A stretch of 63,810 bases of DNA, counting the filler, from Reclinomonas americana ATCC 50394 (lineage: Eukaryota): assembly GCA_048213135.1 (NCBI GenBank). It is 12 parts of 7 records of this genome, joined end to end, with 100 filler letters (N's around TTAATTAATTAA, not from the genome) between each part and the next. Parts side by side here need not be neighbours in the genome. Positions count along the whole stretch, not along the records: positions 49,842 to 56,779 come from PS015894.1; positions 56,880 to 59,434 come from PS015895.1; 10 more parts are not named here. One strand, 5' to 3'. The stretch's first letter is position 1. Each line of letters starts with the position of its first letter. The translations under genes were made by a program, and so were the position numbers. Shown here one piece after another: positions 8,377 through 61,607 of this stretch. The notes beneath the pieces are model-generated. The model ran no database searches, was not told the origin of the DNA, and worked only from the letters and a program-made list of their open reading frames with translations.

Positions 8377-10174
8377 TCGACATCGGGGGTCGCCGGCGTG
8401 GCGGTCCGCTTCATGCCCAGATCCTGATTCAGCTTCTTAAAGTGCACGCACTGCTTCATGACATACTCCAATATCCTCTTGGCGGCCACGTGCGGCATCA
8501 CCACGCCATCCTCGTTGTCCTTTTCGACGTTGATGTTGAGCACTTGTCTGTAGAGGTGGCAAATACGTGAGTGGCAAGAGATCACTTGGGAGGCACCGCA
8601 CTAACGACTCACCCGCACTGCTGTACATAGTAGACAATGTCCTCGCGATCGCACTTGTTGGTCAGCTGCGCCAACCGAGCACGCTCCGATGCAAACTCCT
8701 CGTCCAGGTCGAAAAGATCGAGTCCCGGTGGTGGCGGGTCACGCACAATCGGTGCAAACACCGCCGGCGTCAGCGGCGGCAGTGGCGTCTCGAACTGCGA
8801 GGTCGAAAACACATGATGAGGCGGTGCACACAGAGACGGAGAGACAATTAGAAACACAAAAAACCTCTGGCGGGATGAGTGTCAACGACTCGTGCTTCAC
8901 ACCGAGCTCGGCATACAGTGCCACCGTCTCTGGCACCAGCGCCATGTCAAACGTGAAAAGATCCTCGGAGAAGAGCGATAAGTAGTCCTTGGAGACCTCT
9001 TCGGTCTCCTGTAGACAATTCTTGGCTTTCTCTGCCAGACTCTGAATGTCGGGTACGAAGTTGTAGTCGTTCACCTGCAGAGACAATGGACAGTGGATGA
9101 GTGCGCGACGAAGAGAGGATTAGGAGGGAAGGCTATCACGGCACCTCGGGGTTCTTGGCATCAATGCGGTTCAGCTTGATGATCTCTGCCGTCTTGGCGG
9201 TGTCCACCATGCCCTTGGCCTTCAGCTTCACCTCCTCGCCCGCTTGCAGCAGCCATCGCATCACAATCTGCACACATGACATGCGTGAGCGGAGCCGCAA
9301 GGGAGAAAGAGAGTGGCGGGAGAGCGCACATCGTGAAGCGTGTTGTTTTCCTCTTTTGACCACCACGCATCCTCAAAGATCAACTCGCTGCCCATCACGA
9401 CCATGCGACCGCCGCCCTCCACCTTCAAACATGACAGCAGTCAAAACCAACAAGCAGCAACGAGTGCAACGGCAACACACAGACTAACTTCGCAAAAGGC
9501 GCACACTGGCCGGTTCAGTGGGTACGCGACAAAGCCGGTGGTCAGCACCGGGATTGCGGGCTTTTGTACATCCAGTGTGGCACCGTAGGGATAAACAAAG
9601 GTGAGGTTGTTGCTGCATGCGCAAGCGAGAAGTGAGAAGACTGCCGCGGTGTGCAGTGGCTGCACACTCCATAAAACGCAACGACATGCCGGTGACTGTC
9701 CGATCGGCGTACATGTCACCCACTGGCTTGCCGGCAGCCTGGTTGATCGCGCGATTGCACACACCGTTCGTGATGGCGCACTGTGGACGGACAGAGATGA
9801 GAAGGGCACAACAGGAGCAAAAGGGGTAAACGAGCGACAGCACCTCCTTGGGGTGGAAATACTTGTAAAACACAGCGCGAATGACAGCATCGCTCGACAC
9901 CGACACGCCGTACTCCTCCAGCAGAAAGTTGATGTTGGTGTTGTGCGACTTCTCACCGCCCTCACCAATCATCACCAGCAGACTCTTGCCCGCGGCCAAG
10001 AACGACTTGAGCGCGTCAAACTGCGGGCACACACGTGAGACAACATCTCAAGGCCGTCTGTGTCTCTCCCACTGGTGACTTGCCTCCTCGCCCTTGAAGG
10101 GCGCGTTGGGTCCATTGATCACAAACAGATCGCACTGTGAGAGCGCCGCCTCACTGATTTCATCGTCGTTCAAT
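8377..10174 (-). CDS. IFT52: Intraflagellar transport protein 52, partial (both ends run into gaps)
   Basis: NTNINFLLEEYG, DAVIRAVFYKYFHPKE, FVYPYGATLDVQKPAIPVLTTG..YPLNRP, FETPLPPLTPAVF, PPPGLDLFDLDEEFASERARLAQLTNKC; includes a GC-AG intron (GAG|gcaagt near 10083). Confidence 0.95.
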
Positions 10175-10395
10175 CTGTGTTGCAGGAAGATGATGATCAG
10201 TGAATGTCTTTTGTGAAGGGGAGGGAGAGAGAGAGGGAAAGAAGGAGGGAGAGGGAGAGGGGGTAAGGGTGAGGGAGAGGAAGAGGGAGAAGAGAGAGGG
10301 TGAGTGGGTGCACTGATCTCATCGTCGTTCAATCTATGTGTGTCGCAGGAANNNNNNNNNNNNNNNNNNNNNNNNNNNNNNNNNNNNNNNNNNNN

Positions 10396-10407
10396 TTAAT
10401 TAATTAA
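10396..10407. other. Artificial contig linker TTAATTAATTAA (also at 18496, 20561, 26395, 29402, 38433, 46128, 49786, 56824, 59479, 61552)
   Basis: Identical palindromic six-frame-stop 12-mer, always flanked by about 44 Ns on each side. Confidence 0.97.
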
Positions 10408-10451
10408 NNNNNNNNNNNNNNNNNNNNNNNNNNNNNNNNNNNNNNNNNNNN

Positions 10452-37541: not shown

Positions 37542-38262
37542 CCCCTTCCCAGTCCTTCATTCCTCCTCTTTCTCTCTCATAGTCACTCTCCTTCCCTCCT
37601 TCCCTTCCTCCCTGCCTCCTCTTCGCTTATCCTTTCTCCTTCACTTCCTGTCCCTCCCCCTCCCTCCCTCCTACCCTTCTCCTCTGTCTCACCTTGCCTT
37701 CTCCTCTGTCTCACATCACCTTCTCCTCTGTCTCACATCACCTTCTCCTCCTCCTCCTATCTCGCGTCGCAGATCGCCGCATTCCCTTCAAGATCAAGCA
37801 CGTGTACGAGGCCATGGGAGTGCTTCGCGCAGTTCTCTTTGAGATGGAGGAGCCTGTGTTGACATTTGAGGCGTACGAGCGGTTTATTGAGATTCAAGTG
37901 GAGAGCGATCCGGCGGTGCGTCGCCTCGGCTTCTCCGAGGCTCTCGACAAGCTGCCGACGGAGAACAAGTGCCTCGCGCACTGGCTGCTGTGGTTCTTGC
38001 ACATTCTGAGTGAGAACGCCACCATCAATGGGGCCACGTCGGTCAATTTGGCCCTATCGCTCGCCCCCGTTTTCCTCCGCACCAAGAACAAGGTGTGATG
38101 CGTGCGGGAGTTTTCCAGTTGTTATTCTTCTCCTCCTCCCTCTGCTCACTTGGTTTGTGTGTCCGTGAATGTCAGTTGGCCGCCGATCTGGTACAGAGTC
38201 ATCTCATTCTCAGCGCCGGCATTGTGAAGTCGCTCATTGATGACATTCCGCAGTTCCTGGCG
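37411..38262 (+). CDS. RhoGAP-domain exons, partial
   Basis: GVLRAVLFEMEEPVLTFEAY..LDKLPTENK..LLWFLHIL..N.ATSVNLALSLAPVFLR. Confidence 0.8.
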
Positions 38263-38488
38263 GTTAGTGTTTGGTTCTTCATGTCTCACACACACACTCT
38301 CTCTCTCTCTCTCTCGCACACGCACAGTTCTTCTCCTTCACTTCGCCTTCGTCATTCGCTATCCACTCCTCGCTCGCTCTCTCTCTCTNNNNNNNNNNNN
38401 NNNNNNNNNNNNNNNNNNNNNNNNNNNNNNNNTTAATTAATTAANNNNNNNNNNNNNNNNNNNNNNNNNNNNNNNNNNNNNNNNNNNN

Positions 38489-46066
<7,578 letters not shown>

Positions 46067-46649
46067 GTGTGAAGAAATGGGGANNNNNNNNNNNNNNNNN
46101 NNNNNNNNNNNNNNNNNNNNNNNNNNNTTAATTAATTAANNNNNNNNNNNNNNNNNNNNNNNNNNNNNNNNNNNNNNNNNNNNGGGAGAGGGAGAGGGAG
46201 AGGGAGAGGGAGAGGGGAGAGGGAGGAGGGAGAGGGAGAGGGAGAGGGAGAGAGAGAGGGAGAGGGAGAGGGAGAGGGAGAGGGAGAGGGAGAGGGAGAG
46301 GGAGAGGGAGAGGAGAGGGAGAGGAGAGGAAGAGGAAAGGGATGGGAGGGGGAGAGGTAGAGGGAGAGGAGAAGGAGAAGGAGAAGGAGAGGATTGCAGA
46401 AGAGAAGGAGAAGGAGAGGGAGAGAGAGAGGGGGAGAGAGGGAGAAGGAAGAGGGAGAGGAAGAGGAAGAGAGAGGGTGAGGGGAGAGGGAGAGGGAAAG
46501 GGTGAGAAGGGCGAGTCGAATCGGTGAAGGCAAGGAAGACGAGAAAGGTGCACGCGGGAAGGGAATGGGAAGAGGGAAAGGGAAGGGAAACAAAAGTGAG
46601 GGGGGAAAGACAAAGCAGTGAGAATGAGAAAATTTTGCGACGCTTGACT

Positions 46650-49267
46650 TGAGTATCGACACGTCTCGCAATGGCTGGCGATGAGCCGTTGCTATTCGTG
46701 ACCCTCACAAACCTGAATGTCCGCATTGTGATCAAACACCACGTTGTTCTTCACCAGCTTGAGGACCTTGCGCCCTTCTGTGTCCAAATACAGCTTCGTG
46801 TGCTCCATGCTATGCGAATCGACTCCATAGGCATACTTGAAGTCCACGCCACTGCGACGAGCGACACGCGTCAGCGGCGGTGACAAGTAATCAAGCTCAC
46901 ATCCCTGCACTGCGCAACTCGGCACCCTCCGGCAAAATCACACGCAAAACGTACTTGCGCGCGGCGACCTTGGCCAGCGCCGAGGAGAATGGGTAACGCA
47001 GCACCATCTTGCCGTCGTCGGGACGTTGGAACAGCACATCGTCAATCAGGGTGTTGTGGCCAAACATAATGTGCGTCTTCCAGCCGCCAAAGAGCGGATA
47101 GCGGGGGTACATGTTCAGCTGCGGCCAGGAAAACACAGCCGATCAGACAAGCAATGGAAAGATCTGTTCTTCGCATTGACGACGCAACAATGGCTCCCTT
47201 GTCGTCAAAAGCAACGGCCGAGGACGACACGTTGCCGATCTCGTCGCGGAAGTACAGCCCGTAGGTGTTGAGCGGCATGAATGCCACTGTGCTGCGCATG
47301 GCGTTGGCGCTCCACGTTTCCGGGTTACGAGTGTACTCCAGGCGAGAGAACGGCTGCTTCAGCCTGCACCAAGAGGGTCAGCGTCGTGCACTGCGATGAC
47401 GGTAGCAGCGCGAGGCCGACGCAACTTGGCGCCGACGTGCTTGATGGTGGCACTCTCCTCCACACGAATATTGCCCCAGTGCGAGATCTCAATCTCGCGC
47501 TCGATCAGCGGCGCGACCAGCAGCGGCTCGTTGTTTTCGGTCTGGATGGCCAGCTCGGACTCGGAGAACGGGGCGACGCCTGCGGGGCGACGGAGTGAGA
47601 GGAGGTGATGACAGAGGAAGAGAGACTTTCTCCTGTGTGGACAAAACTGTCGTACGGTCCAAATGTCAGCTTCTTGCCGTCGCGCTTGCTCGGCTCCTTG
47701 GCCGTGAAATGCTCGACGCGAGTGGTCGCCAGGGTGACCTCGGTCTCCTGGCGCACAGTGCGGTACGGCGAGAAGAAGTAGTGGTTGCCGAGGAAGAGCA
47801 CCGTCTGACGCTCGTTCTGCTCCATCTCCGACGGGTACGCATCAAAGCCCTCAATCAGCACAATCGTCACGCCAATGGCGGAGCGCTCGCCCGGGCCCAC
47901 TGGCTCCTTCAGCAGCACGTCGTAGAACTTGCCACTGTGTTGGGTTGGTGGTGAGGGAAGGAGAGGGATAGAGGGAGAAGGGAGGGAGAGAGAGGTGCGC
48001 AACTCCTTGACGACTTCCAACTCGGGCTCCGTCTCGGATTCCACGTGGAGGAAGGCCAGGCGTGAGAGCTCCAGGTCGTCGAATGCCAGCTGAGGGGGGG
48101 AGGGGAGGGAGTGAGGGAACAAAGGGCAAGGGGAGAAATGAGGACGTGGAGGATATAAACAAGAAAATGGCACGAAGTGAGGAAACAGAGGACGACGTGA
48201 ACGAAATGAGAGCACAGCGAGAGAGAAGAGGCGAGTGCTGAGAGGAGGAAGACGCAGCGCGACACCGCAGCATTGCAACAGCATGCGCGATAGAGAAAGT
48301 GGAGCGAAACGAGAGCACAGCGAGAGAGAAGAGACGAGTGCGGAGAGGAGGAAGACACCGTGTGTGAAAATGCGGCACTGAAAGAGAGCAGAAGGCAGAG
48401 CAACAGTGGAAGATGAAACGAAATGAGAGCACAGCGAGAAAGAAGAGGCGAGTGCTGAGAGGAAAAAGACGCAGCGCGACACTGCTGCACTGCAACAGCA
48501 TGCGCGATAGAGAAAGTGGAGCGAAATGAGAGCACAACGAGAGAGAAGAGACGAGTGCTGAGAGTAGGAAGACGCAGCGCGACAATGCTGCACTGCAACA
48601 GCATGCGCGATAGAGAAAGTGGAGCGAAACGAGAGCACAGCGAGAGAGAAGAGGCGCACATGGAAAAGAGGAAGACGCAGTGCGGCAATGCAGCGTTGCA
48701 AATATGGCAGAGGATGAACACGAGCAACGATCGACGTATGACGAGCGATCATCAGGAGGAGGAAGAGCGCATGAAGTGCAGGAAAGCCACGGAACAAAGA
48801 GAGAGAGTAAGGAAGTGTGTGTGCATGTGTGCGTCCAAGTGCGCATGATCGTGCCGGGCAGCGAGAGAGAGCGTGTGAGGCAGAGAGCACGATGCCACCT
48901 GTCACGAAAACCTGCAATTCCTCCGCCACTCATGACACACACTCGGAATCGCCTCACTCACACAGCACACAGACACACACGCACAAACACACAAACACAC
49001 TCAACTCGATACTTGGCCACCGACTCCTTTGCATCCTTGCTGTTGCGGAACCGAATCGAAATCTGGTACCCTACACACACACAAACACACACTCAGCAAC
49101 ACACACTCTCTCCCTCTCTCACACACAGACACACACACGCAACGAGCGAGATTCCTGCTCAGATCCAACTTGCGTTCCACACGCTCATTCACAATCGCAC
49201 TCTCCGCCACACACGCACACACAACAACAAGCAACACACAAACAACAAACACGCCACGTGTCATCAT
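46650..49267 (-). CDS. RPN1: Ribophorin I (OST subunit 1), 3' end missing
   Basis: Signal peptide plus IVNERVERKLDL; FLGNHYFFSPY, FGPYD, REIEISHWGNIRVEE, YFRDEIGNVSSS, PRYPLFGGWKT, ILPEGA, YLDTEGR. Confidence 0.95.
48195..48685. repeat. Imperfect ~110 bp tandem repeats within an RPN1 intron
   Basis: gagagcacagcgagagagaagag.cgagtgctgagag..gaagacgcagcgcgac..caacagcatgcgcgatagagaaagtggagcgaa recurs 4-5 times. Confidence 0.85.
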
Positions 49268-49652
49268 CTCGTCACCACCTGCAAAACACACAAAGAGAGA
49301 GAAGAGAGAGAGAGAGTGAGAGAGAGAGAGCGCAATGTCGACACACAAACACACACGCAGGAAGAATGTGTGTGTATGTGTGTGAGTGTGAGCAAGAGTG
49401 TGTGTAAGACGTGTGTGTGCAAGTGTGCAAGTGTGTGTGCAAGAGTGTGTGAAAGAGTGTGTGAAAGAGTGTGTGAAAGAGTGTGTAAGTGTGTGTGCAA
49501 GTGTGTGTGCAAATGTGCAAGTGCGTGCAAGAGTGTGTGCAAGTGTGTGTGCAAGTGTGCTTGTGTGAGAAAGAGTGTGAAAGAGTGTGCGCAAGTGTGT
49601 GTGCAAGTGCGTGTGCAAGTGTGTGTGCAAGTGTGTGTACAAAGTGTGCAAG

Positions 49653-49738
<86 letters not shown>

Positions 49739-49841
49739 GTCNNNNNNNNNNNNNNNNNNNNNNNNNNNNNNNNNNNNNNNNNNNNTTAATTAATTAANNN
49801 NNNNNNNNNNNNNNNNNNNNNNNNNNNNNNNNNNNNNNNNN

Positions 49842-51585
49842 CCTGGGCGAATACCGGAGTGTTGCTAACGCCGAGGAGCCCGGTGGTGAGCACCATCGGG
49901 CTGGCCGTGACGCAGTCGCGAACTGTCACGACCGCTGCGGCGTTGTTGACGGTGAGCGCACCGACCTTGCTTTGGCCGCAGATGACTTTGGTCCCAGTGC
50001 CCTCAATCACGATCGTGGCGGCGCCTGTGCCTTGCAGGTTGCAGTTCGAGGCTTCCACGTAGCCGCTGCCACTGAGCGTGAGTCCCTGCACGCTGCACGC
50101 CTCGAGGTACGTCGTGCCGCTGCCGCTGACGACGAGTCCGCCGGCGAACGAGCAGCCCAGCAGGCGCACGCTGCCGCTGCTGTTGATGGTCACAAGTCCG
50201 GTCAGGTTCACGATCCCGCCGCGCTCATAGTTGACGCTCGTGATCGTGAGATTCTGCTGGTTGAGGGACGTGTTCGCGGCGTACGTGCCCGGAAACAGCG
50301 CGACCTGGCGACCACTGCTCGACGCGATGGTGGCTGCCTGCGCGAGCGTGGCGACGGCGCTCTGCTCCGAGTACCCATTGTTGCTGTCGTTGCCGGTGAG
50401 CGCCGAGCAGTACACGACGTTGTTGAAGACGTTGTTCAGGTTTCCCATCGTGCCGCTCGGGATTGTGGGAAACGTGGCCAGGCTGAGGTCTCCGCGAAAA
50501 TACTGGCCAGTCGAACCGGTCGTGATCGTCGGCTGCCTGGTGGCGATCGCCGTGTCGAGCTGTCCCTTGGTCACGGCGTCCGCCGAGTCCGTCGCAGCGG
50601 CCAGGCCGCGAATCTGCTGCGTCGTGAATGTGATGGGGCCTGTTAGCGTGCCTCCGGAGAGCGGGAGCACTCCGGCCAGTTGCCCAGCGAGCACGAGATC
50701 GGCAGCTTTGCGAGCGTTTTCTTCAGCAACGATGGCGGCCGCGTTGGCATTGGACGCCGTCGTCAAGGTCGTTACGGCGGCCGAGCGAGTCGCGGCCTCG
50801 GCCGACAGCGCGGTCTGCAGGCTGCCGACTACGGGCGACACTTCGACCGCGTTGTTGAAGCCGGTGAAGACCGGCCCCGAGCTGCCGACGTACGAGAAGT
50901 CTCCGAGAGTCGGAGAGTTCGACGGTACCTTCGCGGTCAGCACCTGATCTGCCGCGATGCGTGCTGTCGTCTCGTCCGCGATCTGACCTGCGAGCGCGTA
51001 CGCGACATTGGACCGCACCTGCGCCTCCTCCTGGATCGCGGTGTTGAGGGCGCTGTCGGCGGCAATTCTGGCGTTTGCCTCAGTCGTCACCGCGGCCGCG
51101 CGTGTCGTCGCTTCGGAGGAGATCGCGCTCTCGCGTGTCGCCGCTTCGGAGGAGATAGCGGTCGTCAGCGTCGTGTCGGCCGACTGCCGGGCAGTGATCT
51201 CCGCGGCCAGGCCGGACTGCAGGGTCGTAATCGCCGATCCCTGGGCCGCAGACGCGGTCTGCAACTGGCCGATGTCGGTGGTGTGCGCCGCGACGTCGAG
51301 TGTGAGGGCCTGCAGCTGGTCGCCGACGTCCTCGCCGTCGAGCTGCAGCGAGCCGAAGACAGAGAGTGTTTTTGGGACTCCCTGCGATCCCACCTGCACA
51401 TCGCCGTTCCAGTCGATTGAGCCGTCAGGTGCTGACAGGCTTCCCGTCACGACTAGGTCGCCCACGATGTTCGTAACCGGAGCATCGATGGAAACGACAC
51501 CGGTCGAGACATCTTCGCTGATCGCCGCGACGCTTCCGCCGCCTCCGCCGGTGCCGGTGTTCGTGTTGCCGCCCCACGTGCTCAT
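49842..51585 (-). CDS. Putative virion fibre/spike: coiled-coil stalk plus right-handed beta-helix; truncated at contig end (>580 aa)
   Basis: About 8 ExxxR(xxAD) repeats, LPLSGGTLTG, DAVTKGQLD, then VYCSALTGNDSNNG..VATLAQA..LFPGTY, typical of a beta-helix N-terminal cap; likely ATG at 51585. Confidence 0.7.
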
Positions 51586-51629
51586 GCGTGCTGTGGCTCG
51601 GAAAAAAGACGCTCTAAAGCGGGCGGCGC

Positions 51630-52982
51630 TCAGCGCTCGACGACGACCTTGTTGCGGGAGAGCAGCAGGTTGCTCGATCCGTGGAGCAGGACGAAGACAT
51701 TGCAGGCGTCGCTGGCGCCCTTCGTCACAGTCAGAACGATGTTGTTGACCGGCTGGTCGCTCGACAGGCCCTCGCGCCCGACGCTGTTCACCGGCGAGAC
51801 GGGCGAGAAGAACGGGGCAGCCGTGGTCGCGTTTCTGGCAATGAGTGCGTCCACCAGCGTCGAGCTGTACGGTACGATGCTGTACTCGTCCTGCAGATCG
51901 CTCTCCTTGTTCACGGCCTTGCAAAAGTCGAGGAAACGCTCGTACGGCTCGCGGGACGCGTTCGTGCAGTCGATCGCCAGCTGGCTTGCCACCTGGCCGT
52001 TGATGCGCCACTGATACGCGGACACGGCGGCGCGAATCGAGCTCAGCGTCTTCCAGGCAGCGTAGGTCGTGGCGTCGTCGACGTCGCTGGGCCGAATGAG
52101 TGCCTGCAGCGCGTTCGAGTAGCGGGTCTGGGTGTTCACGATGATGTTGAAGGTTCCAGCCCCGCCCGAGAGATTGATCGCTTGCGCCTCCACGTCGCGG
52201 ACGCGCATGACGACGGCGGCCGTCGGGTCAAGTGTCGCGCGGTCGAGCCGATCGATCATGGCGCGCTCGATATCGGGGTGGACCTGCACGTACGGCACAT
52301 TGAGGCTCAGATTCAAGATCGTCACATCGGCAGCCTGGGAGTCGGCGTCTGTGCGGTTCGTGAACCGGTTGGAGTTGTTGAAAGTCACGCGTACCTCCAC
52401 CCGCTCCAGGAGCGACACCGGGAACGCGTTTTTCGTGCTTGTGAGGCACGAAAAGTCGTCCGGGATCGGAACGTGGAATCTCGAGACGGAGAGAGGGGGG
52501 GCGCCTCCGGGCTGCACCAGCGCCGGCATCGCGTAAAGCGGATTGCTCAGCGCCCCGGCAGCAGACTGGGTCACCATGCCCATCTGCGCGCCCTGCGTCA
52601 CTCCCCAGTCTTGGCCGTGGCGAGAGATGTACGACGACATAATCTCGGAAAAGCCGTTGGCTGTGTCGGGCGTGACCCGAGTGCCGTTGACCCAGATGTC
52701 GAGAGAGCGGAACACGCCCCAGGGCTCACACTTCAGGGTCGCCACGTTCGTCGAAGAGCGCAGGTCGAAGCTGAAGTACGCGCCCATGTTGCCGCTGGAG
52801 CGGGCGATCCACCCGGCCTGCGGAAGCACGAACGTGCGGGTCTGGTTACCCGCTCCGACCAAGATGTCGCCGGTGTTGTCCGGCAAAACCTGGATCCACT
52901 CGGTGTCGTAGATGGCTGAGCGGTCCGGGAGGTCGTAGTGGACCATCTCGTCCGCGCGCACTTTCTGTGTCGGGCGATGCAT
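51630..52982 (-). CDS. Putative double-jelly-roll major capsid protein (450 aa)
   Basis: Size, beta-rich pattern and PLV-like segments RTFVLPQ..AYFSFDL, GVFRSLDIWVNGT, FPVSLLERVEVRVTF, ILNLSLNVPYV, YQWRING; sits beside ATPase and penton. Confidence 0.8.
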   Translation of the reverse strand: MHRPTQKVRADEMVHYDLPDRSAIYDTEWIQVLPDNTGDILVGAGNQTRTFVLPQAGWIARSSGNMGAYFSFDLRSSTNVATLKCEPWGVFRSLDIWVNGTRVTPDTANGFSEIMSSYISRHGQDWGVTQGAQMGMVTQSAAGALSNPLYAMPALVQPGGAPPLSVSRFHVPIPDDFSCLTSTKNAFPVSLLERVEVRVTFNNSNRFTNRTDADSQAADVTILNLSLNVPYVQVHPDIERAMIDRLDRATLDPTAAVVMRVRDVEAQAINLSGGAGTFNIIVNTQTRYSNALQALIRPSDVDDATTYAAWKTLSSIRAAVSAYQWRINGQVASQLAIDCTNASREPYERFLDFCKAVNKESDLQDEYSIVPYSSTLVDALIARNATTAAPFFSPVSPVNSVGREGLSSDQPVNNIVLTVTKGASDACNVFVLLHGSSNLLLSRNKVVVER

Positions 52983-53019
52983 CTTGACGCGATGTGGGCG
53001 CACCCCCGAGCTCCAAATG

Positions 53020-53913
53020 TCATTCGTCCTCGCCCTCCGCGTCTGCGAGTTCGCGCTCGATCGACTCCAGCTCCGCCAGGAGGGCCCTCCGCTCTTCGGC
53101 GCTCAGCCGCATGCTGGCCGGGGGCGGAGTGGGAGCCGGCTGTCTACTTCGGCGAAGTACAGCCGATGATGGCAACGTGTCGAGAGCGCCAAACGGGTCG
53201 TCGGCTTGCTGCTGCAGGCTACCCGCGAACTCTGTCGCGGGCGGCCCCTCTGGCTCTGGTCGCTTGCCAAGAGCGCTGTCGTAGTACTCTCGCCACTTCG
53301 CGGAATCGCCACGCAGCGGCACGTTGTGCTGCGCATAGCTAAGGTGGCCGAGCTTGAACTTGAACGCCTGGATGGCCGCGTTGGCCGCCTGTCTCGCCAG
53401 GAAGCCGTCAATTTTGCCAGAGCTAATGCCACGGCGCGCGGCCGTCACGAAGTTTCGGTCAGCCTCTCTGAGCGCAGCTTCGCGCTCGCGTGCCGACGGC
53501 AGAGTCGCCGCGCGGGTGTATTCGATATCGTGCCGGCGGAAGAGAGCGTCGAGCGCGTCCTTCGGTGCCACGCGCAGGTCGGCCGGCGTCAGTGGCTCGT
53601 CGGCTGCGAGCTTGCGGCCGGCGGAATAACCGGGTCCGCCCCAGTTTCCGTACACCGGTATCTGCCCCTTGCGCAGTCCCTGGAACACATCAATCGCCGC
53701 GTTCGCCACCTTCTCTCCCTCTGCCGTGAGCGCAGCCTTTGCACCCTTGCGAAAAAGGTCGAGGCCTATGTCCAATCCACGGTCGAGGACGGCGCGGCCA
53801 TCAGCATTCTCGTACGCCCAGCGCGGGTCAGAGGCTCCCGCTCGCGGCCGACTCTCGGCCTCCAGCTCCGCCTCAAGCGCGGCGAGTCGTTGTTGGCGGC
53901 GCCGCCGGCTCAT
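53020..53913 (-). CDS. Viral phospholipase A2-domain protein (parvovirus VP1u/PLA2X-like), 297 aa
   Basis: Ca-binding loop YGNWGGPG and catalytic helix PKDALDALFRRHDIEY, followed by READ. Confidence 0.88.
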   Translation of the reverse strand: MSRRRRQQRLAALEAELEAESRPRAGASDPRWAYENADGRAVLDRGLDIGLDLFRKGAKAALTAEGEKVANAAIDVFQGLRKGQIPVYGNWGGPGYSAGRKLAADEPLTPADLRVAPKDALDALFRRHDIEYTRAATLPSAREREAALREADRNFVTAARRGISSGKIDGFLARQAANAAIQAFKFKLGHLSYAQHNVPLRGDSAKWREYYDSALGKRPEPEGPPATEFAGSLQQQADDPFGALDTLPSSAVLRRSRQPAPTPPPASMRLSAEERRALLAELESIERELADAEGEDE

Positions 53914-54617
53914 CGTCTTCGGCGAAGATTGGCTCGTCCATATCGTAGAAAAAGGCACGCGGGTCTCTGGAGTTGACGTGCAGGGTGTGATATGGGTGCC
54001 TGTCGCGCCGATTCATGGCTCGCACGATTGCGAGAGCCTCGCGGAACGCCTTCTTGCCCGCCGGGGACATCTCTGCGAGCAGCTCGACGTCTGCCTCCTT
54101 AGCCGAAGCGAAGCAGACGCAGCTCGTAAACTGCTGGCGCGCGAGCTTGCTCACGCACCCCTTGAGGTACTGCACGCTGGCCCAGACGGTCAAGCCCACG
54201 TGTCGACACCAGGTCAACAGATCATTGAGCTTCCGACTCGTGCGGAAAGCTTCCATGCTGTCGTCCAGAACCAGCAGGTCAAAGCGTGGCTTGCCGTCCT
54301 CGATGCTCTTCCGGAGCTGAGCGACGATGTCGTCGATGACCGCGTCGCTGTACTCTTCGTGGATCTGCTCCTTTGGGATGGCGATGCGGTGACGGAAGAT
54401 GTCGTACTTCCACTGGCTGTGGATGAAGTGTATCTTATCGAAGACCATCTTGTACGGCCCCTCCAGCAGCGTGGCAAGCAACTCGCGCGCTCTTGCCAGA
54501 GCCGGTTGGTGCGCACACGAGCAAGTGCTGGCCCACTTTGGGCAGCCCGTCGGGGATGGCCGCGTTCCGCCGGTCGCGGGCGCGCTGGTCCTCGCCGCCG
54601 TGCACCCGGGTTTTCAT
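53873..54617 (-). pseudogene. A32/FtsK-HerA DNA packaging ATPase with a frameshift near 54485-54490
   Basis: Walker A LLVCAPTGSGKS in one frame; Walker B LLVLDD and RHVGLTVWASVQ in another; the 745 nt span is not a multiple of 3. Confidence 0.85.
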
Positions 54618-54657
54618 GCTTCGCTTAGACGCGCCCCGATGGATCTCTAACCGTGCG

Positions 54658-55461
54658 ATGCCGTTCCTCACGTGCAGCAGCTTTGCCCGCGAGTCGGGCA
54701 GCGACTCGGATTTCCGCTTGAACACGAACAGCGCGGCCAGCCTCGGCCGAGTGCAGGATGCAGCGCAGTTCCGGCGCGTGCGGCTTGTGCAGGCGACGCT
54801 GGTGTGGACTGCGTACAACGTCAGCTCGTCGAACAACACGCTCCGCATCCAGGAGAGCGGGAGTGGCAACCCGGCGTTCGCGGCCACTCTGCCCGAGGGG
54901 AACTACGACATCACCTCCATGGTCACAGCGCTGAAGGCGGCGCTCGACACCGCCTCGGAGACGTACGGACTCGACCGCACTTACACCGTCGTGTTCTCGG
55001 CAATCACGTCGAAGATCACAATCAGCGCCACTGGCCAGTTCAAGGTGCTTGCGCCGTCTGGCGGGCGGCTCGCTGGGCTGAACCAGCTGCTTGGCTACTC
55101 GCTGTCGTCGGACTCTGCTGCGTACGCATCGTCGCAGGCTGGGCCGCGCGTGGTGAACATGGCTCGCTATCCTTACGCGTTCATTCACAGCTCACTCGTC
55201 TCTCCCTCCTCTGCCTGGAACGCGATGTACTCCAGCGACGCCGCCGGCACACAGCGCGGCGAGCAACTTCCCATCCTTGCGTCCATCCCAGTGGCTTCCG
55301 CGTCGTTCGGCGATGTGATGACGTGGGTGCCACCGCAAAAGCAATGGCACGACTTGAGCGACCCACGCATCTCGAATCTCTCGTTTTCCATGCGCGACGA
55401 GACGGGAGCGCTCATCTCTCTCAACGGCGCATACTGGTCCTGCGTGTTGGAGGTGGAGTGA
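54658..55461 (+). CDS. Putative minor capsid protein (penton), 267 aa
   Basis: YNVSSSNN, TLPEGNY, LLGY, FIHSSLV, ILASIPV, ISNLSFSMRDETGALISLNG..CVLEVE: pattern typical of Polinton/PLV/virophage pentons. Confidence 0.85.
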   Translation: MPFLTCSSFARESGSDSDFRLNTNSAASLGRVQDAAQFRRVRLVQATLVWTAYNVSSSNNTLRIQESGSGNPAFAATLPEGNYDITSMVTALKAALDTASETYGLDRTYTVVFSAITSKITISATGQFKVLAPSGGRLAGLNQLLGYSLSSDSAAYASSQAGPRVVNMARYPYAFIHSSLVSPSSAWNAMYSSDAAGTQRGEQLPILASIPVASASFGDVMTWVPPQKQWHDLSDPRISNLSFSMRDETGALISLNGAYWSCVLEVE

Positions 55462-57204
55462 GCAACCGGACAACCCCAACCGGACAACACCCAGGGCGCG
55501 GCTGAAGCAGTACGGCTGAAGCAGTAGGAAGCGGAGAAGAGGGAGTTGTCCGGTAGCCGCTTTTTTCGGGCGGCGCGCGGCCTCCGGCGGTGTGGCGCTT
55601 GCTGCTGCCTCGGGTGGGGGGGGGGGGGGTGGGTGGGGGTGGGAGGGGTCCGGGCGGGGGGGGCCGGCCGTAAGGCGGAAGCCGCGCGCCTAGTGGGCTG
55701 CTGTACCGTACACTCCCGTCTTGGCCCGTACAGCAGGNNNNNNNNNNNNNNNNNNNNNNNNNNNNNNNNNNNNNNNNNNNNNNNNNNNNNNNNNNNNNNN
55801 NNNNNNNNNNNNNNNNNNNNNNNNNNNNNNNNTTAGATCACGTACTCGAAAAATCTTGGTGACGTACTAGTCAAATCGACCAACCCACCCCCCCCCCCCC
55901 CGTTTCGCGCAGGTTGGAGGACATGCATGTGTGCGTATGTAGGACGCGTTCCTCTTGGAGGGGTGAAGCAAACAGTGACGCATCGATGGGTGCTGCGTAC
56001 GGAGAGTGCCATAGATGGTTTGTTGGCACGTCTGCTTGATGGGCAAGAGGAGAGAAACAAGCATGAAACCGGACAGCCTCTTCACTTGCAACTGATGAGT
56101 GGAGGGAAGGCTGGGGGAAGTGGAGCACTGCAGTCTCCGGGGAAGGGTTTGCACAGTTGATGGCAGGGGACTTCTGAACTGCATTTGCAGACGACGACAG
56201 ATATCGCAAATATTATTAATATCGATGTGCAGAAGGCACCAGCAACGCACTCAGGGCTTCTCACCACCACCATGGAGAAGATCGCCCTCTTCTTCTACAC
56301 AATACCCTTTTCGCTCTGCCAAACACATGCGACAGGCAGACGTCGAGGACACCTTCCTTCATCTCTCTTGTTCGATACGTTACTGCGCGGCAGTGGTCTC
56401 GTGCATCGCCTTTTGCGTCGATGCGTCTTGCCTTCTGTTGGTGTTGTTGAGAGACAGTCGACAGTGTCGCTGTTGCAAAGCGCGTGGATACCGTCATCCT
56501 CCCCTCCCCCCTTTCCCGGCAACCACACAACAGCAAGCAATCCTGGTGTCTCTCCAGCTCCGCCAGTCGCACCGCAATCTGATGCTTCGCCACCGCGATC
56601 TTCAACAGTGTCTTGCTCAGTGTCACAGGCGGGTGTCGCCCACTCGACTCCAGTTGCATGTACGCACAAAAGGCTTCCTCTGCGCGAGTCACACTGCATT
56701 CCGCCATGGCCGCAGTCGCCAGCACCAGAACCTGACTGGGATCCACAACGACAATAGTGGTAGGAGATGGCGAGGAAATNNNNNNNNNNNNNNNNNNNNN
56801 NNNNNNNNNNNNNNNNNNNNNNNTTAATTAATTAANNNNNNNNNNNNNNNNNNNNNNNNNNNNNNNNNNNNNNNNNNNNCTGGTTGAGGAGATGGCGATG
56901 GAATGGGAGGAGAATGCGATGAAATGGGGAGTGTAGGTGGGGTTGATTGGGGGAGGGCGAGGAGTGGTGGAGTGGGAGGTGCGGGTGGTTCGAGTCTGTT
57001 GGTTGTGCGAGTGGTGGTTGTGGTGTGGGAGGGAGTGGGTTCGATGACGGTGAGGTGAGGGTGGGAGGAGTGGTGGCAGCCCATTCTGTTGATGAGTGCG
57101 GTGAGTGAGTGAGGACATGATTGTGGTGAATGACAACCGACGTTGTTGAACTGCTGGTTGTGTGTGGACGTCGTGTCGATGGCGTTGAAGCTTGTGTGTT
57201 GTTT

Positions 57205-58966: not shown

Positions 58967-59558
58967 GACGAACACAAACCATGGGTGCGTGGCACAGCGG
59001 GCATGTGATCTATGTTTCAGTGGTCAGCAATCAAGCAAACCACGGACTGCGAAAGTACCACCTTCTCGCCTTCAGATTGCCATAAGTAATCAGGCTAAGT
59101 CGTGGAGCCTGCTTCAACGTGGCCAGCGACGTGACTCCGTCGCCACACAGATCCACTCCAGCCTCCGTCACATGCGCACTGTCGCAAGGAAAGAGAGGGA
59201 GCGAGAGAGAGGGACGTCGGTGACCAGGTCGTGCTCTGTCGTCGTGCAAGCATGATAATTCTCACCGGCACAAGTGGTGGAGCTCGTGAGAGCACATGAC
59301 AAAATCCGGAGCACACAGATCCTAAAACAGCGAAGAGTGAGAATCGGAGCTCTCTTCTCTCACTCTCTTCTCTCTCTCTCTGTGCTTCTCCCTCTCTCTC
59401 TCTGTGTGTGCTTCTCCCCCCCTATCTCTCTCTTNNNNNNNNNNNNNNNNNNNNNNNNNNNNNNNNNNNNNNNNNNNNTTAATTAATTAANNNNNNNNNN
59501 NNNNNNNNNNNNNNNNNNNNNNNNNNNNNNNNNNTCTCTCTCTCTCGTCTCTCTCTCT

Positions 59559-61457: not shown

Positions 61458-61607
61458 CTGAGTGAGCGTGTGTGTGTGTGGGAAGGGAGAAGCAGACAGC
61501 ATACGGANNNNNNNNNNNNNNNNNNNNNNNNNNNNNNNNNNNNNNNNNNNNTTAATTAATTAANNNNNNNNNNNNNNNNNNNNNNNNNNNNNNNNNNNNN
61601 NNNNNNN

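Follow-up and report, generated by a model that had tools for sequence, protein, structure and literature searches.

A probable virion gene module of a divergent polinton-like virus on one scaffold of a flagellate genome assembly

The scaffold at positions 49842-56779 of the window (the whole 63,810-nucleotide stretch of Reclinomonas americana ATCC 50394 DNA analysed here) carries a block of tightly packed genes, and it raises the question of what these genes encode and whether they reside in the flagellate's own genome. An initial annotation had read them as a polinton-like virus module set into host DNA. Small polinton-like viruses (PLVs) are plentiful in protist genomes and waters, and are debated as a defence against giant viruses and, equally, as kin of giant viruses' ancestors. 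Our principal reading, to which we give a probability of roughly 0.85, is that the scaffold holds about 5.9 kb of a small polinton-like double-stranded DNA virus of the Bamfordvirae (polintons, PLVs and virophages), comprising its virion module for morphogenesis and entry. The description of the source as a protist assembly is reasonable, given the eukaryotic genes (IFT52, ribophorin I, cyclin, RhoGAP) on other scaffolds of the window.

Five long intronless open reading frames fill positions 49842-55461. As had been noted, they nearly abut: 44, 37 and 40 nt separate them, and in one place there is an overlap of 41 nt, where the start of the PLA2-like gene runs over the stop of the ATPase gene. 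Tandem repeats are absent from inside the coding part of this scaffold, and microsatellites are present in the neighbouring ones. The GC content of the viral scaffold is 0.635, against 0.52-0.59 in the other scaffolds, a difference that goes with its nearly all-coding content; GC3 is 0.74-0.86 in the called viral frames and 0.79 in host exons.

The argument for a virus begins with the gene at 51630-52982 (minus strand), which encodes an apparently full-length protein of 450 amino acids. Its AF2 model, built from 15 sequences, has a pLDDT of 78.4 and a pTM of 0.81. Foldseek comparison of this model with the PDB returned the capsid proteins of SGIV and PBCV-1 at E about 6e-17, Sputnik at 6e-13 and PRD1 at 2e-12, whilst the best match in BFVD had an E of 9e-22. 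With VIA-align the highest scores were to Faustovirus (Z 27.7, rmsd 2.9, 338 residues aligned), PBCV-1 (27.1) and ASFV p72 (24.6), followed by Sputnik (19.7), mavirus (18.0), PRD1 (17.4) and the adenovirus hexon (13.8). The alignment to solved double jelly-roll capsid proteins spans residues 20-450. The double jelly-roll expected of this gene was thus found, and the predicted model shows the protein to have the capsid fold. The 15-sequence profile matched no capsid protein among PDB sequences, and the assignment therefore rests on predicted structure.

The view that this capsid protein is divergent was well founded. A search of 1.84 billion representatives brought out 14 relatives at E up to 0.001; P0001, the best of them, shares 38% identity in an alignment over residues 13-445. 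No Pfam family, those of giant-virus capsid proteins included, matches the protein at E up to 1, and its family went undetected both by word search and by six pattern scans of IMG/VR. Searches of Pfam, PHROGs and NCBIfam gave nothing significant for the capsid protein, the PLA2-like protein or the fibre. As far as these sequence collections reach, the capsid family is a rare one. The longest contigs bearing its members measure 15678, 13674, 16621, 15846 and 14289 bases; P0001 and the sole penton relative, P0015, are each reported on two contigs, with a shared longest length of 15678 bases. The viral scaffold is a divergent member of a widespread type of virus.

An A32-type (FtsK/HerA) DNA-packaging ATPase is encoded at 53873-54617 (minus strand), with GSGKS as Walker A and LLVLDD as Walker B. 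It is read in two frames, Walker A lying in one and the remainder in another, and the shift of one base falls inside a GCGCGCG run (54484-54490) directly past Walker A. The C-terminal 191 residues match Pfam Pox_A32 over profile positions 73-194 (E 2.4e-7; 30.9 bits, where the cut-off is 22.8). When the gene is read through with an X placed at the break, the first 158 residues follow Pox_A32 positions 17-137 unbroken (E 2.9e-5, 24.1 bits). A further match is to phrog_2666, 'terminase large subunit' (E 1.7e-7). Both halves exceed the Pfam cut-off, and by these profile matches the enzyme belongs to the A32 packaging family, as the initial annotation had it.

The putative penton, or minor capsid, gene lies at 54658-55461 on the plus strand and encodes 267 amino acids. 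It has a single homologue, P0015, which is 54% identical with 100% coverage and the same N-terminus; judged against this one close relative, the gene is full length. Further afield, it matches chain 8h2i_bG 'P1v1' of the PBCV-1 capsid (E 0.026 for the protein alone, 0.009 with a two-sequence profile) and Pfam DUF5901, where neither the protein itself (E 9e-4) nor P0015 (E 0.0067) reaches the cut-off. Confidence in the AF2 model is low (pLDDT 47). Its best VIA-wide matches, EhV-201 8rbt_S (Z 7.7), PBCV-1 6ncl_a6 (7.4), the mavirus penton 6g41 (7.2) and 8h2i_bG (6.4), are capsid-shell proteins, all at Z below 8 and in the middling range. BFVD yielded 16 matches at E up to 0.001, albeit with a TM of only about 0.3, among them an adintovirus protein (1.3e-5), the mavirus minor capsid protein (1.3e-4), the MELD virus penton (2e-4) and adomavirus LO5 (2.2e-4). 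The protein is probably, with moderate support, a single jelly-roll protein of the five-fold vertex, as had been expected of this gene.

Between the capsid and ATPase genes, at 53020-53913 (minus strand), lies the gene for a PLA2-like virion protein of 297 amino acids, with a basic N-terminus, a central domain and a partly proline-rich C-terminus ending in an acidic stretch. Read from the translation, the central domain contains Y88-G-N-W-G-G-P-G95, H128-D-I-E-Y132 and D152. The motif reading is based on what we take to be the parvovirus PLA2 consensus, YxGxG ... HDxxY ... D, with its calcium-loop glycines and catalytic His-Asp dyad. In the ESM Atlas the whole protein scored 0.88 with 189 shared features, in a cluster 88% of which is PF08398 (Phospholip_A2_4), and residues 60-200 scored 0.91 with 196 shared features, PF08398 being present in 27 of the 30 matches. 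The PF08398 model itself was not matched, Pfam giving no hit for the whole protein at E 1 or for the domain at E 10; word search gave no homologue, and no phospholipase was among the PDB sequence matches. A parvovirus-type phospholipase A2 domain is probable, with moderate support, and the PLA2 gene claimed for the module likewise. On the assumed consensus, the protein resembles the parvovirus VP1 unique region (PF08398) in its glycine-rich loop, HDxxY and later Asp, but differs in being a separate protein rather than the N-terminus of a capsid protein.

The last frame, at 49842-51585 (minus strand), encodes the fibre-like protein, of which 581 codons are readable (49843-51585), the C-terminus being lost at the scaffold end. 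A Gly-rich N-terminus is followed by an Ala/Thr-rich stalk (about 91-310) and then by an intertwined neck (about 305-370); the C-terminal part (396-581), rich in Gly, Ser, Thr and Val, is presumably a beta-helix. Hydrophobic periodicity is weak (3.6 and 11.1 residues). Modelled as a homotrimer, residues 95-400 scored 0.73, the best of three controls reaching 0.00, with an interface in the fibre model every 3-4 residues over 95-220 and 252-307; in the trimer runs contact agreement was at least 64% and partner pLDDT at least 70. Of 30 proteins solved as same-chain pairs, 21 attained this mark, as did none of 23 solved as single chains, although the fibre was modelled in three copies, unlike the calibration set, and coiled-coil fibres resemble solved structures, so that the pass may reflect memory. 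Sequence matches are weak: Pfam YadA_stalk at E 0.0076, below the cut-off, and three PHROG families of unknown function at E 0.007-0.04, with none in the PDB or NCBIfam. The modelling supports, albeit more weakly than for the capsid protein, a parallel trimeric fibre formed by this long Ala/Thr-rich protein, and thus a fibre in the module.

With a double jelly-roll capsid protein, an A32 ATPase, a probable penton, a probable PLA2 and a trimeric fibre-like protein, the polinton-like identity of the module holds. In the working that we propose, capsid protein trimers and penton pentamers would build an icosahedral shell, into which the ATPase would pump the genome. Fibres at the vertices would bind the host surface through their C-terminal, presumably beta-helical, part, and the PLA2 protein, carried in the virion, would by analogy with the parvovirus VP1 unique region breach the vesicle membrane on entry.

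The spacers may hold a common signal. TTAGA occurs three times on both strands of 5896 bases, each time on the sense strand and 32-33 nt before an ATG. One copy (51617-51613, minus strand) lies in the capsid/fibre spacer at 51586-51629 (minus strand), with the ATG of the fibre gene 32 nt downstream. The other two, one per strand, lie in the 40-nt divergent spacer between the ATPase and penton genes (54618-54657), at 54625-54629 (plus) and 54650-54646 (minus), each 33 nt before the ATG of its gene. The capsid gene has TTGGA at -34, so that T-T-[AG]-G-A stands 32-34 nt upstream of the ATG in four of the five genes. The count is ordinary (3 against 3.5 +/- 1.8 in shuffles), and the placement alone is odd, in a set of five genes only. 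We infer a shared promoter or start-site element.

The borders of the module have to be read with care. The window is joined by 11 linkers, each of 44 N, TTAATTAATTAA and a further 44 N, and thus strings together 12 separate scaffolds. What was described at position 49842 as a sudden change from host to viral DNA is an artefact: this is the first base of the scaffold and lies beside an artificial linker, so integration is not demonstrated. No junction ties the scaffold physically to host DNA, the left join being artificial and the right part lying beyond a gap, and 55737, the right border claimed for the module, adjoins a 95-N gap within the scaffold. The non-coding tail past the penton gene (55462-55737, GC 0.71), which ends at this gap, contains two 14-nt tandem duplications (55463-55493 and 55499-55526) and a G-run (55612-55648). 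Across the gap, 55616-55637 can pair with 55880-55901 in a C-run (95% complementary), a pairing that may arise by chance in low-complexity sequence or may have given rise to the gap. The post-gap segment (55833-56779, 947 bases, GC 0.55) has four open reading frames of at least 150 amino acids, none with a Pfam match at 1e-5, and blastn finds nothing like it elsewhere in the window; it may represent host flank, non-coding DNA of the virus or a scaffolding error. The viral scaffold, with its virus fragment of only 5.9 kb, shows no replication gene, integrase, protease or terminal repeat. That the scaffold stops short accounts for the missing replication and integration genes, and the absence of these or of a protease from the genome is not implied. 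The practical lesson is that scaffold borders here are artificial linkers, and host-virus junctions apparent at them carry no meaning.

Adintoviruses are animal-tropic, are defined with pPolB and a retrovirus-like integrase, and have a PLA2X with a pX-like C-terminus. The window element shares with them a virion protein with a (here probable) parvovirus-like PLA2 domain beside the capsid genes, PLA2X being reported in adintoviruses in passages of PMC8502044, but its companion scaffolds point to a flagellated protist (IFT52), and pPolB and integrase are not on the fragment. According to excerpts of 10.64898/2026.06.19.733378 and PMC7805220, a phospholipase gene is capsid-associated in roughly half of the Gosseviruses, commonly in group 2 Maverick-Polintons, and also in VC35, so that the Gossevirus group and group 2 Maverick-Polintons (Polintoviricetes-related) resemble the element in encoding a phospholipase domain protein with the capsid genes. 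The cysteine protease, a Gossevirus core gene, is not on the window fragment, however, and the window capsid model lies nearer to the capsid proteins of giant viruses than to those of mavirus or adenovirus. Virophages (Maveriviricetes) likewise score below giant-virus capsid proteins, through Sputnik and mavirus, and their protease is not on the fragment. PLVs (Aquintoviricetes and allied groups) resemble the element in their compact capsid, penton and ATPase module, their protist hosts, contigs of at most 14-17 kb bearing the relatives and, since phage-like fibres are reported across PLVs in parts of PMC12220804, a fibre gene; they differ in that the window capsid family escapes Pfam, word search and IMG/VR scans. 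Because, on these partial sources, PLA2 and phage-like fibres are already described in polinton-like viruses (PMC7805220, PMC8502044, PMC12220804), their pairing marks no new lineage, and the initial suggestion that it might does not stand.

In the best-surviving alternative, possible though somewhat improbable, the virus was free or episomal, or belonged to a different organism in the culture, and was co-sequenced as its own scaffold outside the flagellate chromosomes. It is consistent with the undemonstrated host junction, with four of five genes that are intact, and full length where relatives exist for comparison, with a scaffold that has no sequence in common with the other 11, and with relatives whose contigs reach at most 14-17 kb, about as long as a whole small genome. 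Codon use, on the other hand, tracks host exons: the RSCU correlation between the viral genes and 631 host exon codons is 0.82 (0.71 for G/C-ending codons alone), which fits a virus of this host rather than an unrelated contaminant, albeit such agreement could arise in any GC3-rich genome. The ATPase frame change, if real, would disable packaging, and 947 bases of differing composition lie beyond the gap. In excerpts of PMC10120064, moreover, endogenous PLVs commonly assemble as short separate contigs, and nearly half of MCP hits in draft protist assemblies fall on fragments no longer than a virus genome. On account of host-like codon use, the single frame change and this habit of endogenous PLVs, we lean modestly towards an element endogenous in the flagellate genome.

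That the module is a decayed fossil, kept as inert host DNA after losing particle formation, is unlikely. The frame change past Walker A and a module standing alone on its scaffold would suit it, but the other four frames are open (581, 450, 297 and 267 codons), neither capsid nor penton is truncated in comparison with its relatives, and the frame change sits in a GC-dinucleotide run of a gap-rich draft, many frameshifts in draft-assembly PLVs being assembly artefacts in the same excerpts of PMC10120064. That the stretch derives from the genome of a giant virus (Nucleocytoviricota), or from an endogenous insertion of one, is very improbable: the capsid model is nearest to Faustovirus, PBCV-1 and ASFV, the penton's sequence matches are to a PBCV-1 chain and DUF5901 only, the ATPase is of the A32 family, and parts of the 2026 preprint 10.64898/2026.06.19.733378 describe PLV-sized groups with giant-virus-related capsid modules, yet five genes back to back in 5.6 kb follow the layout of a small-virus morphogenesis module, giant-virus capsid families go unmatched in Pfam, the relatives' longest contigs are of 14-17 kb, and that preprint reports phospholipase as capsid-associated in Maverick-Polinton-related groups.

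The preferred reading thus remains a small polinton-like virus, one in which the capsid model is giant-virus-like and the PLA2 gene polinton-type. It is doubtful that the scaffold samples an unclassified PLV lineage with genomes of perhaps about 15 kb, resident in the flagellate genome, with a capsid recognisable by structure only, a mosaic of giant-virus-like capsid and penton with a Maverick-Polinton/Gossevirus PLA2, and its own TTAGA at -33. Were the tie to the flagellate confirmed, the capsid family with its 14 relatives would be a host-anchored addition to a poorly sampled branch.

The scaffold at positions 49842–56779 is best read as a fragment of the virion module of a small polinton-like virus (PLV), a reading to which we assign a probability of roughly 85%. 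Polintons, PLVs and virophages are described as defined by a compact module encoding a double jelly-roll capsid protein, a penton and an A32 ATPase (PMC11161782). Five ORFs, with ATG starts in the standard code, fill 5.6 kb (49842–55461). Four lie on the minus strand: a fibre gene (49843–51585; 581 codons, running off the scaffold end), a capsid protein gene (51630–52982; 450 codons), a PLA2-like gene (53020–53913; 297 codons) and an ATPase gene (53873–54617; two frames with one frame change). The probable penton gene (54658–55461; 267 codons) is on the plus strand. The spacers measure 44, 37 and 40 nt; the PLA2-like and ATPase ORFs overlap by 41 nt. Third-position GC in the five called frames is 0.74–0.86, a strong coding signal, and the numerous further ORFs on both strands are a chance product of 65% GC sequence. 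The coding part contains no tandem repeats, and a tRNA scan of the scaffold returned none.

Searched as a single sequence, the 450-residue capsid protein has no significant match in Pfam, PHROGs or NCBIfam, no homologue in a word-indexed protein search and nothing meaningful among PDB sequences. Of 1.84 billion representatives searched exhaustively with phmmer, 14 proved to be relatives (E up to 0.001), with the top match at 38% identity across residues 13–445. The resulting 15-row profile found no capsid protein among PDB sequences, and the family is therefore recognisable by fold only; seven of the relatives likewise match no Pfam family. An AlphaFold2 model built from the relatives' alignment (pLDDT 78.4, pTM 0.81) retrieves with Foldseek the major capsid proteins of SGIV and PBCV-1 (E ~6e-17), followed by Sputnik (6e-13) and PRD1 (~2e-12), with a top match in a viral library at E 9e-22. 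When residues 20–450 of the model were compared with solved capsid proteins by VIA-align, Z values were 27.7 for Faustovirus (rmsd 2.9, 338 aligned), 27.1 for PBCV-1, 24.6 for ASFV p72, 22.8 for SGIV, 22 for vaccinia D13, 19.7 for Sputnik, 18.0 for mavirus, 17.4 for PRD1 and 13.8 for the adenovirus hexon. The double jelly-roll which the initial annotation had expected of this ORF is thus borne out on the predicted structure.

The relatives also give an indication of genome size. P0001, the best of the capsid relatives, and P0015, the only close relative of the penton, both derive from Logan assemblies. Each has two contigs, of which the longest is 15678 bases; this shared contig number and length make it most likely that they belong to one element. 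The longest contigs of other capsid relatives are 13674, 16621, 15846 and 14289 bases, which suggests that these contigs are whole genomes of roughly 14–17 kb. In a tree of the 15 capsid sequences the window protein groups loosely with the relatives P0001/P0006, P0002/P0003 and P0012, outside a separate, well-supported clade of eight (98/95). Scans of IMG/VR and of JGI metagenomes found no relative. One metagenome contig (L001, 1–3126) was rejected as a chance match to the short pattern AGMGWRGM; it encodes proteins of 437 and 471 residues which, judged by eye, resemble bacterial ones (radical SAM-like and methyltransferase-like).

The C-terminal 191 residues of the ATPase match Pfam Pox_A32 over the curated cut-off (E 2.4e-7), whilst the Walker A motif GSGKS is encoded upstream of them in a different frame, the two frames meeting in a GCGCGCG run (54484–54490) directly after Walker A. 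With the break bridged by reference and an X placed at the break, the first 158 residues align to Pox_A32 positions 17–137 in a single stretch (24.1 bits, over the cut-off), which indicates one gene with a single frame change. An intron is rejected on the same alignment, the frames joining inside the conserved stretch that follows Walker A. The N-terminal part gave nothing meaningful against PDB sequences. In draft assemblies, many of the frameshifts that endogenous PLVs show are reported to be artefacts (Bellas et al., PMC10120064); given this report and the gap-rich assembly, the frame change may be either an assembly error or real decay.

The 267-residue protein is probably the penton. A word-index search gives it one close relative, P0015, with 54% identity, full coverage and the same N-terminus. 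Named sequence similarity is limited to the PBCV-1 capsid chain 8h2i_bG 'P1v1' (E 0.026 alone, 0.009 with a two-row profile) and to DUF5901, which both the penton and P0015 match below the cut-off. The AlphaFold2 model, built from just two sequences, is poor (pLDDT 47). Its best matches among 48161 chains are nonetheless capsid-shell proteins, namely EhV-201 8rbt_S (Z 7.7), PBCV-1 6ncl_a6 (7.4), the mavirus penton 6g41 (7.2) and 8h2i_bG (6.4); these Z values fall in the range which the tool calls middling and, with such a model, are leads only. A viral library adds 16 matches at E up to 0.001, with TM-scores of ~0.3, including a Tetraselmis viridis virus S1 protein, an adintovirus protein, the mavirus minor capsid protein, a MELD virus penton and adomavirus LO5.

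The PLA2-like protein contains the motifs Y88-GNWGGPG95, H128-DIEY132 and D152, which fit the glycine loop and His-Asp dyad of a parvovirus-type PLA2. Pfam yields no match to the protein, not even to the domain alone at E 10, and there is none among PDB sequences or in the word search and no significant one in PHROGs or NCBIfam. A feature search of the ESM Atlas, by contrast, gives the whole 297-residue protein a score of 0.88 to a cluster where PF08398 is present in 88% of the members, and residues 60–200 a score of 0.91 (196 shared features), PF08398 being the family in 27 of 30 matches. Motifs and feature matches lend moderate support to a putative parvovirus-type PLA2 domain.

The fibre has a Gly-rich N-terminus, a 220-residue Ala/Thr-rich stalk with weak hydrophobic periods of 3.6 and 11.1 residues, a neck with a weak, below-cut-off match to YadA_stalk (E 0.0076), and a Gly/Ser/Thr/Val-rich C-terminal part, the putative beta-helix of the initial annotation, which the end of the scaffold truncates. 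It has no significant match in Pfam, PHROGs or NCBIfam, and nothing meaningful among PDB sequences. A three-copy model of residues 95–400 scores 0.73 (best of three controls, 0.00), passing a mark that 21 of 30 proteins solved as one-chain pairs reach, as do none of 23 solved as single chains. At least 64% of contacts are shared between model runs, the partner pLDDT is at least 70, and the interface recurs every 3–4 residues, in register, over 95–220 and 252–307. The modelling supports a parallel trimer, although solved fibres are similar, so that the pass may reflect structures already familiar to the predictor, and three copies are unlike the calibration.

A possible regulatory signal accompanies the genes. 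TTAGA occurs at three sites in all on the two strands of 49842–55737, where shuffled sequences give 3.5 +/- 1.8, and all three (51613–51617, 54625–54629 and 54646–54650) are on the sense strand, 32–33 nt ahead of an ATG, one each for the fibre, ATPase and penton genes. TTGGA is found at -34 of the capsid gene (52999–53003 region). Judged on five genes, TTAGA/TTGGA is a candidate shared promoter or start-site element. The 276 non-coding bases after the penton gene contain two 14-nt tandem duplications and a G-run (55616–55637), which pairs with a C-run (55880–55901) across a gap of 95 N (55738–55832), with 95% complementarity over 22 nt. The pair may have caused the assembly break at the gap, or may be chance low complexity; a terminal hairpin was set aside, the arms being 22 nt of low-complexity sequence with no further pairing visible.

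The borders of the module require a different reading from that first given to them. Six-frame stop linkers serve to string separate scaffolds together, and 11 identical copies of one, 44 N + TTAATTAATTAA + 44 N, occur across the 63810 bases (10352–10451, 18452–18551, 20517–20616, 26351–26450, 29358–29457, 38389–38488, 46084–46183, 49742–49841, 56780–56879, 59435–59534 and 61508–61607). The window is therefore 12 separate scaffolds and no single piece of chromosome. The viral scaffold, of 6938 bases, has a GC content of 0.635 versus 0.52–0.59 in the other eleven, with which it shares no blastn similarity. The left border of the module is base 1 of the scaffold (49842) and the right border the edge of the 95-N gap, whilst the (GT)n microsatellite and ribophorin I exons to the left of 49842 lie on another scaffold. 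What the initial annotation took for an abrupt change from host to viral sequence was thus produced by a linker and is uninformative on integration. Any feature spanning or abutting linkers in this record is an artefact, and other findings there need the same check. On the scaffold to the left, a 103-nt unit is repeated in tandem (4.7 copies) and GT/TGTGTGTGAG microsatellites form long arrays (48202–48701, 49367–49737).

The remaining scaffolds have a eukaryotic character. A Pfam scan covered the 115 ORFs of at least 150 aa outside 49842–55737 (from 229 ORFs of at least 120 aa). Ten carry eukaryotic families at E up to 1e-5, namely MORN, IFT52 (twice), EXOSC1, cyclin, WD40, SPRY, RhoGAP and ribophorin I (twice), and none of the 115 carries a viral family. 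These scaffolds therefore derive from a eukaryote whose genes are split and which has an intraflagellar transport gene. Exons appear as fragments in longer stop-free stretches for IFT52 (9444–10047), ribophorin I (47362–48929), cyclin (27727–28632) and EXOSC1 (25200–26348), all on the minus strand, and for RhoGAP (37583–38095) on the plus strand. Host exon stretches (631 codons) have a GC3 of 0.79. Codon preference in these stretches parallels that in the viral genes (1786 codons), with a correlation of r 0.82 overall and 0.71 among G/C-ending codons alone. This agreement fits a virus tied to the host, whether free or endogenous, though any GC3-rich genome would correlate somewhat. Beyond the gap lie 947 bases (GC 0.55), whose four ORFs of at least 150 aa match no Pfam family and which by blastn resemble nothing else in the window. 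Nothing in the window joins the scaffold physically to host DNA, and the balance tilts slightly towards an endogenous element over a free virus.

Beyond the module itself, phospholipase is a known capsid-associated gene: it is drawn in polinton maps of 2013 (PMC3671162), is named PLA2X in adintoviruses (PMC8502044) and is described as shared by Gosseviruses and virophages (PMC7805220); the accessible text of a marine time series with 2,355 distinct PLVs mentions a single PLA2-like enzyme (10.64898/2026.05.28.728513). Phage-like fibres are described across PLVs (PMC12220804). PLV-sized groups with giant-virus-like capsid modules are also on record, as are outliers in which structure alone confirms the capsid proteins (10.64898/2026.06.19.733378). 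Every part of the element therefore has precedent, and the earlier suggestion that PLA2 and fibre together might mark an undescribed lineage loses its footing, both being known from such elements (PMC8502044, PMC12220804). What is still unusual is the rarity of the capsid family, and the predicted combination of parts: the solved proteins nearest to the capsid model are those of giant viruses (Faustovirus, as against mavirus at a lower Z), whereas the PLA2 gene, of which this element has a putative counterpart, is typical of polinton-related groups.
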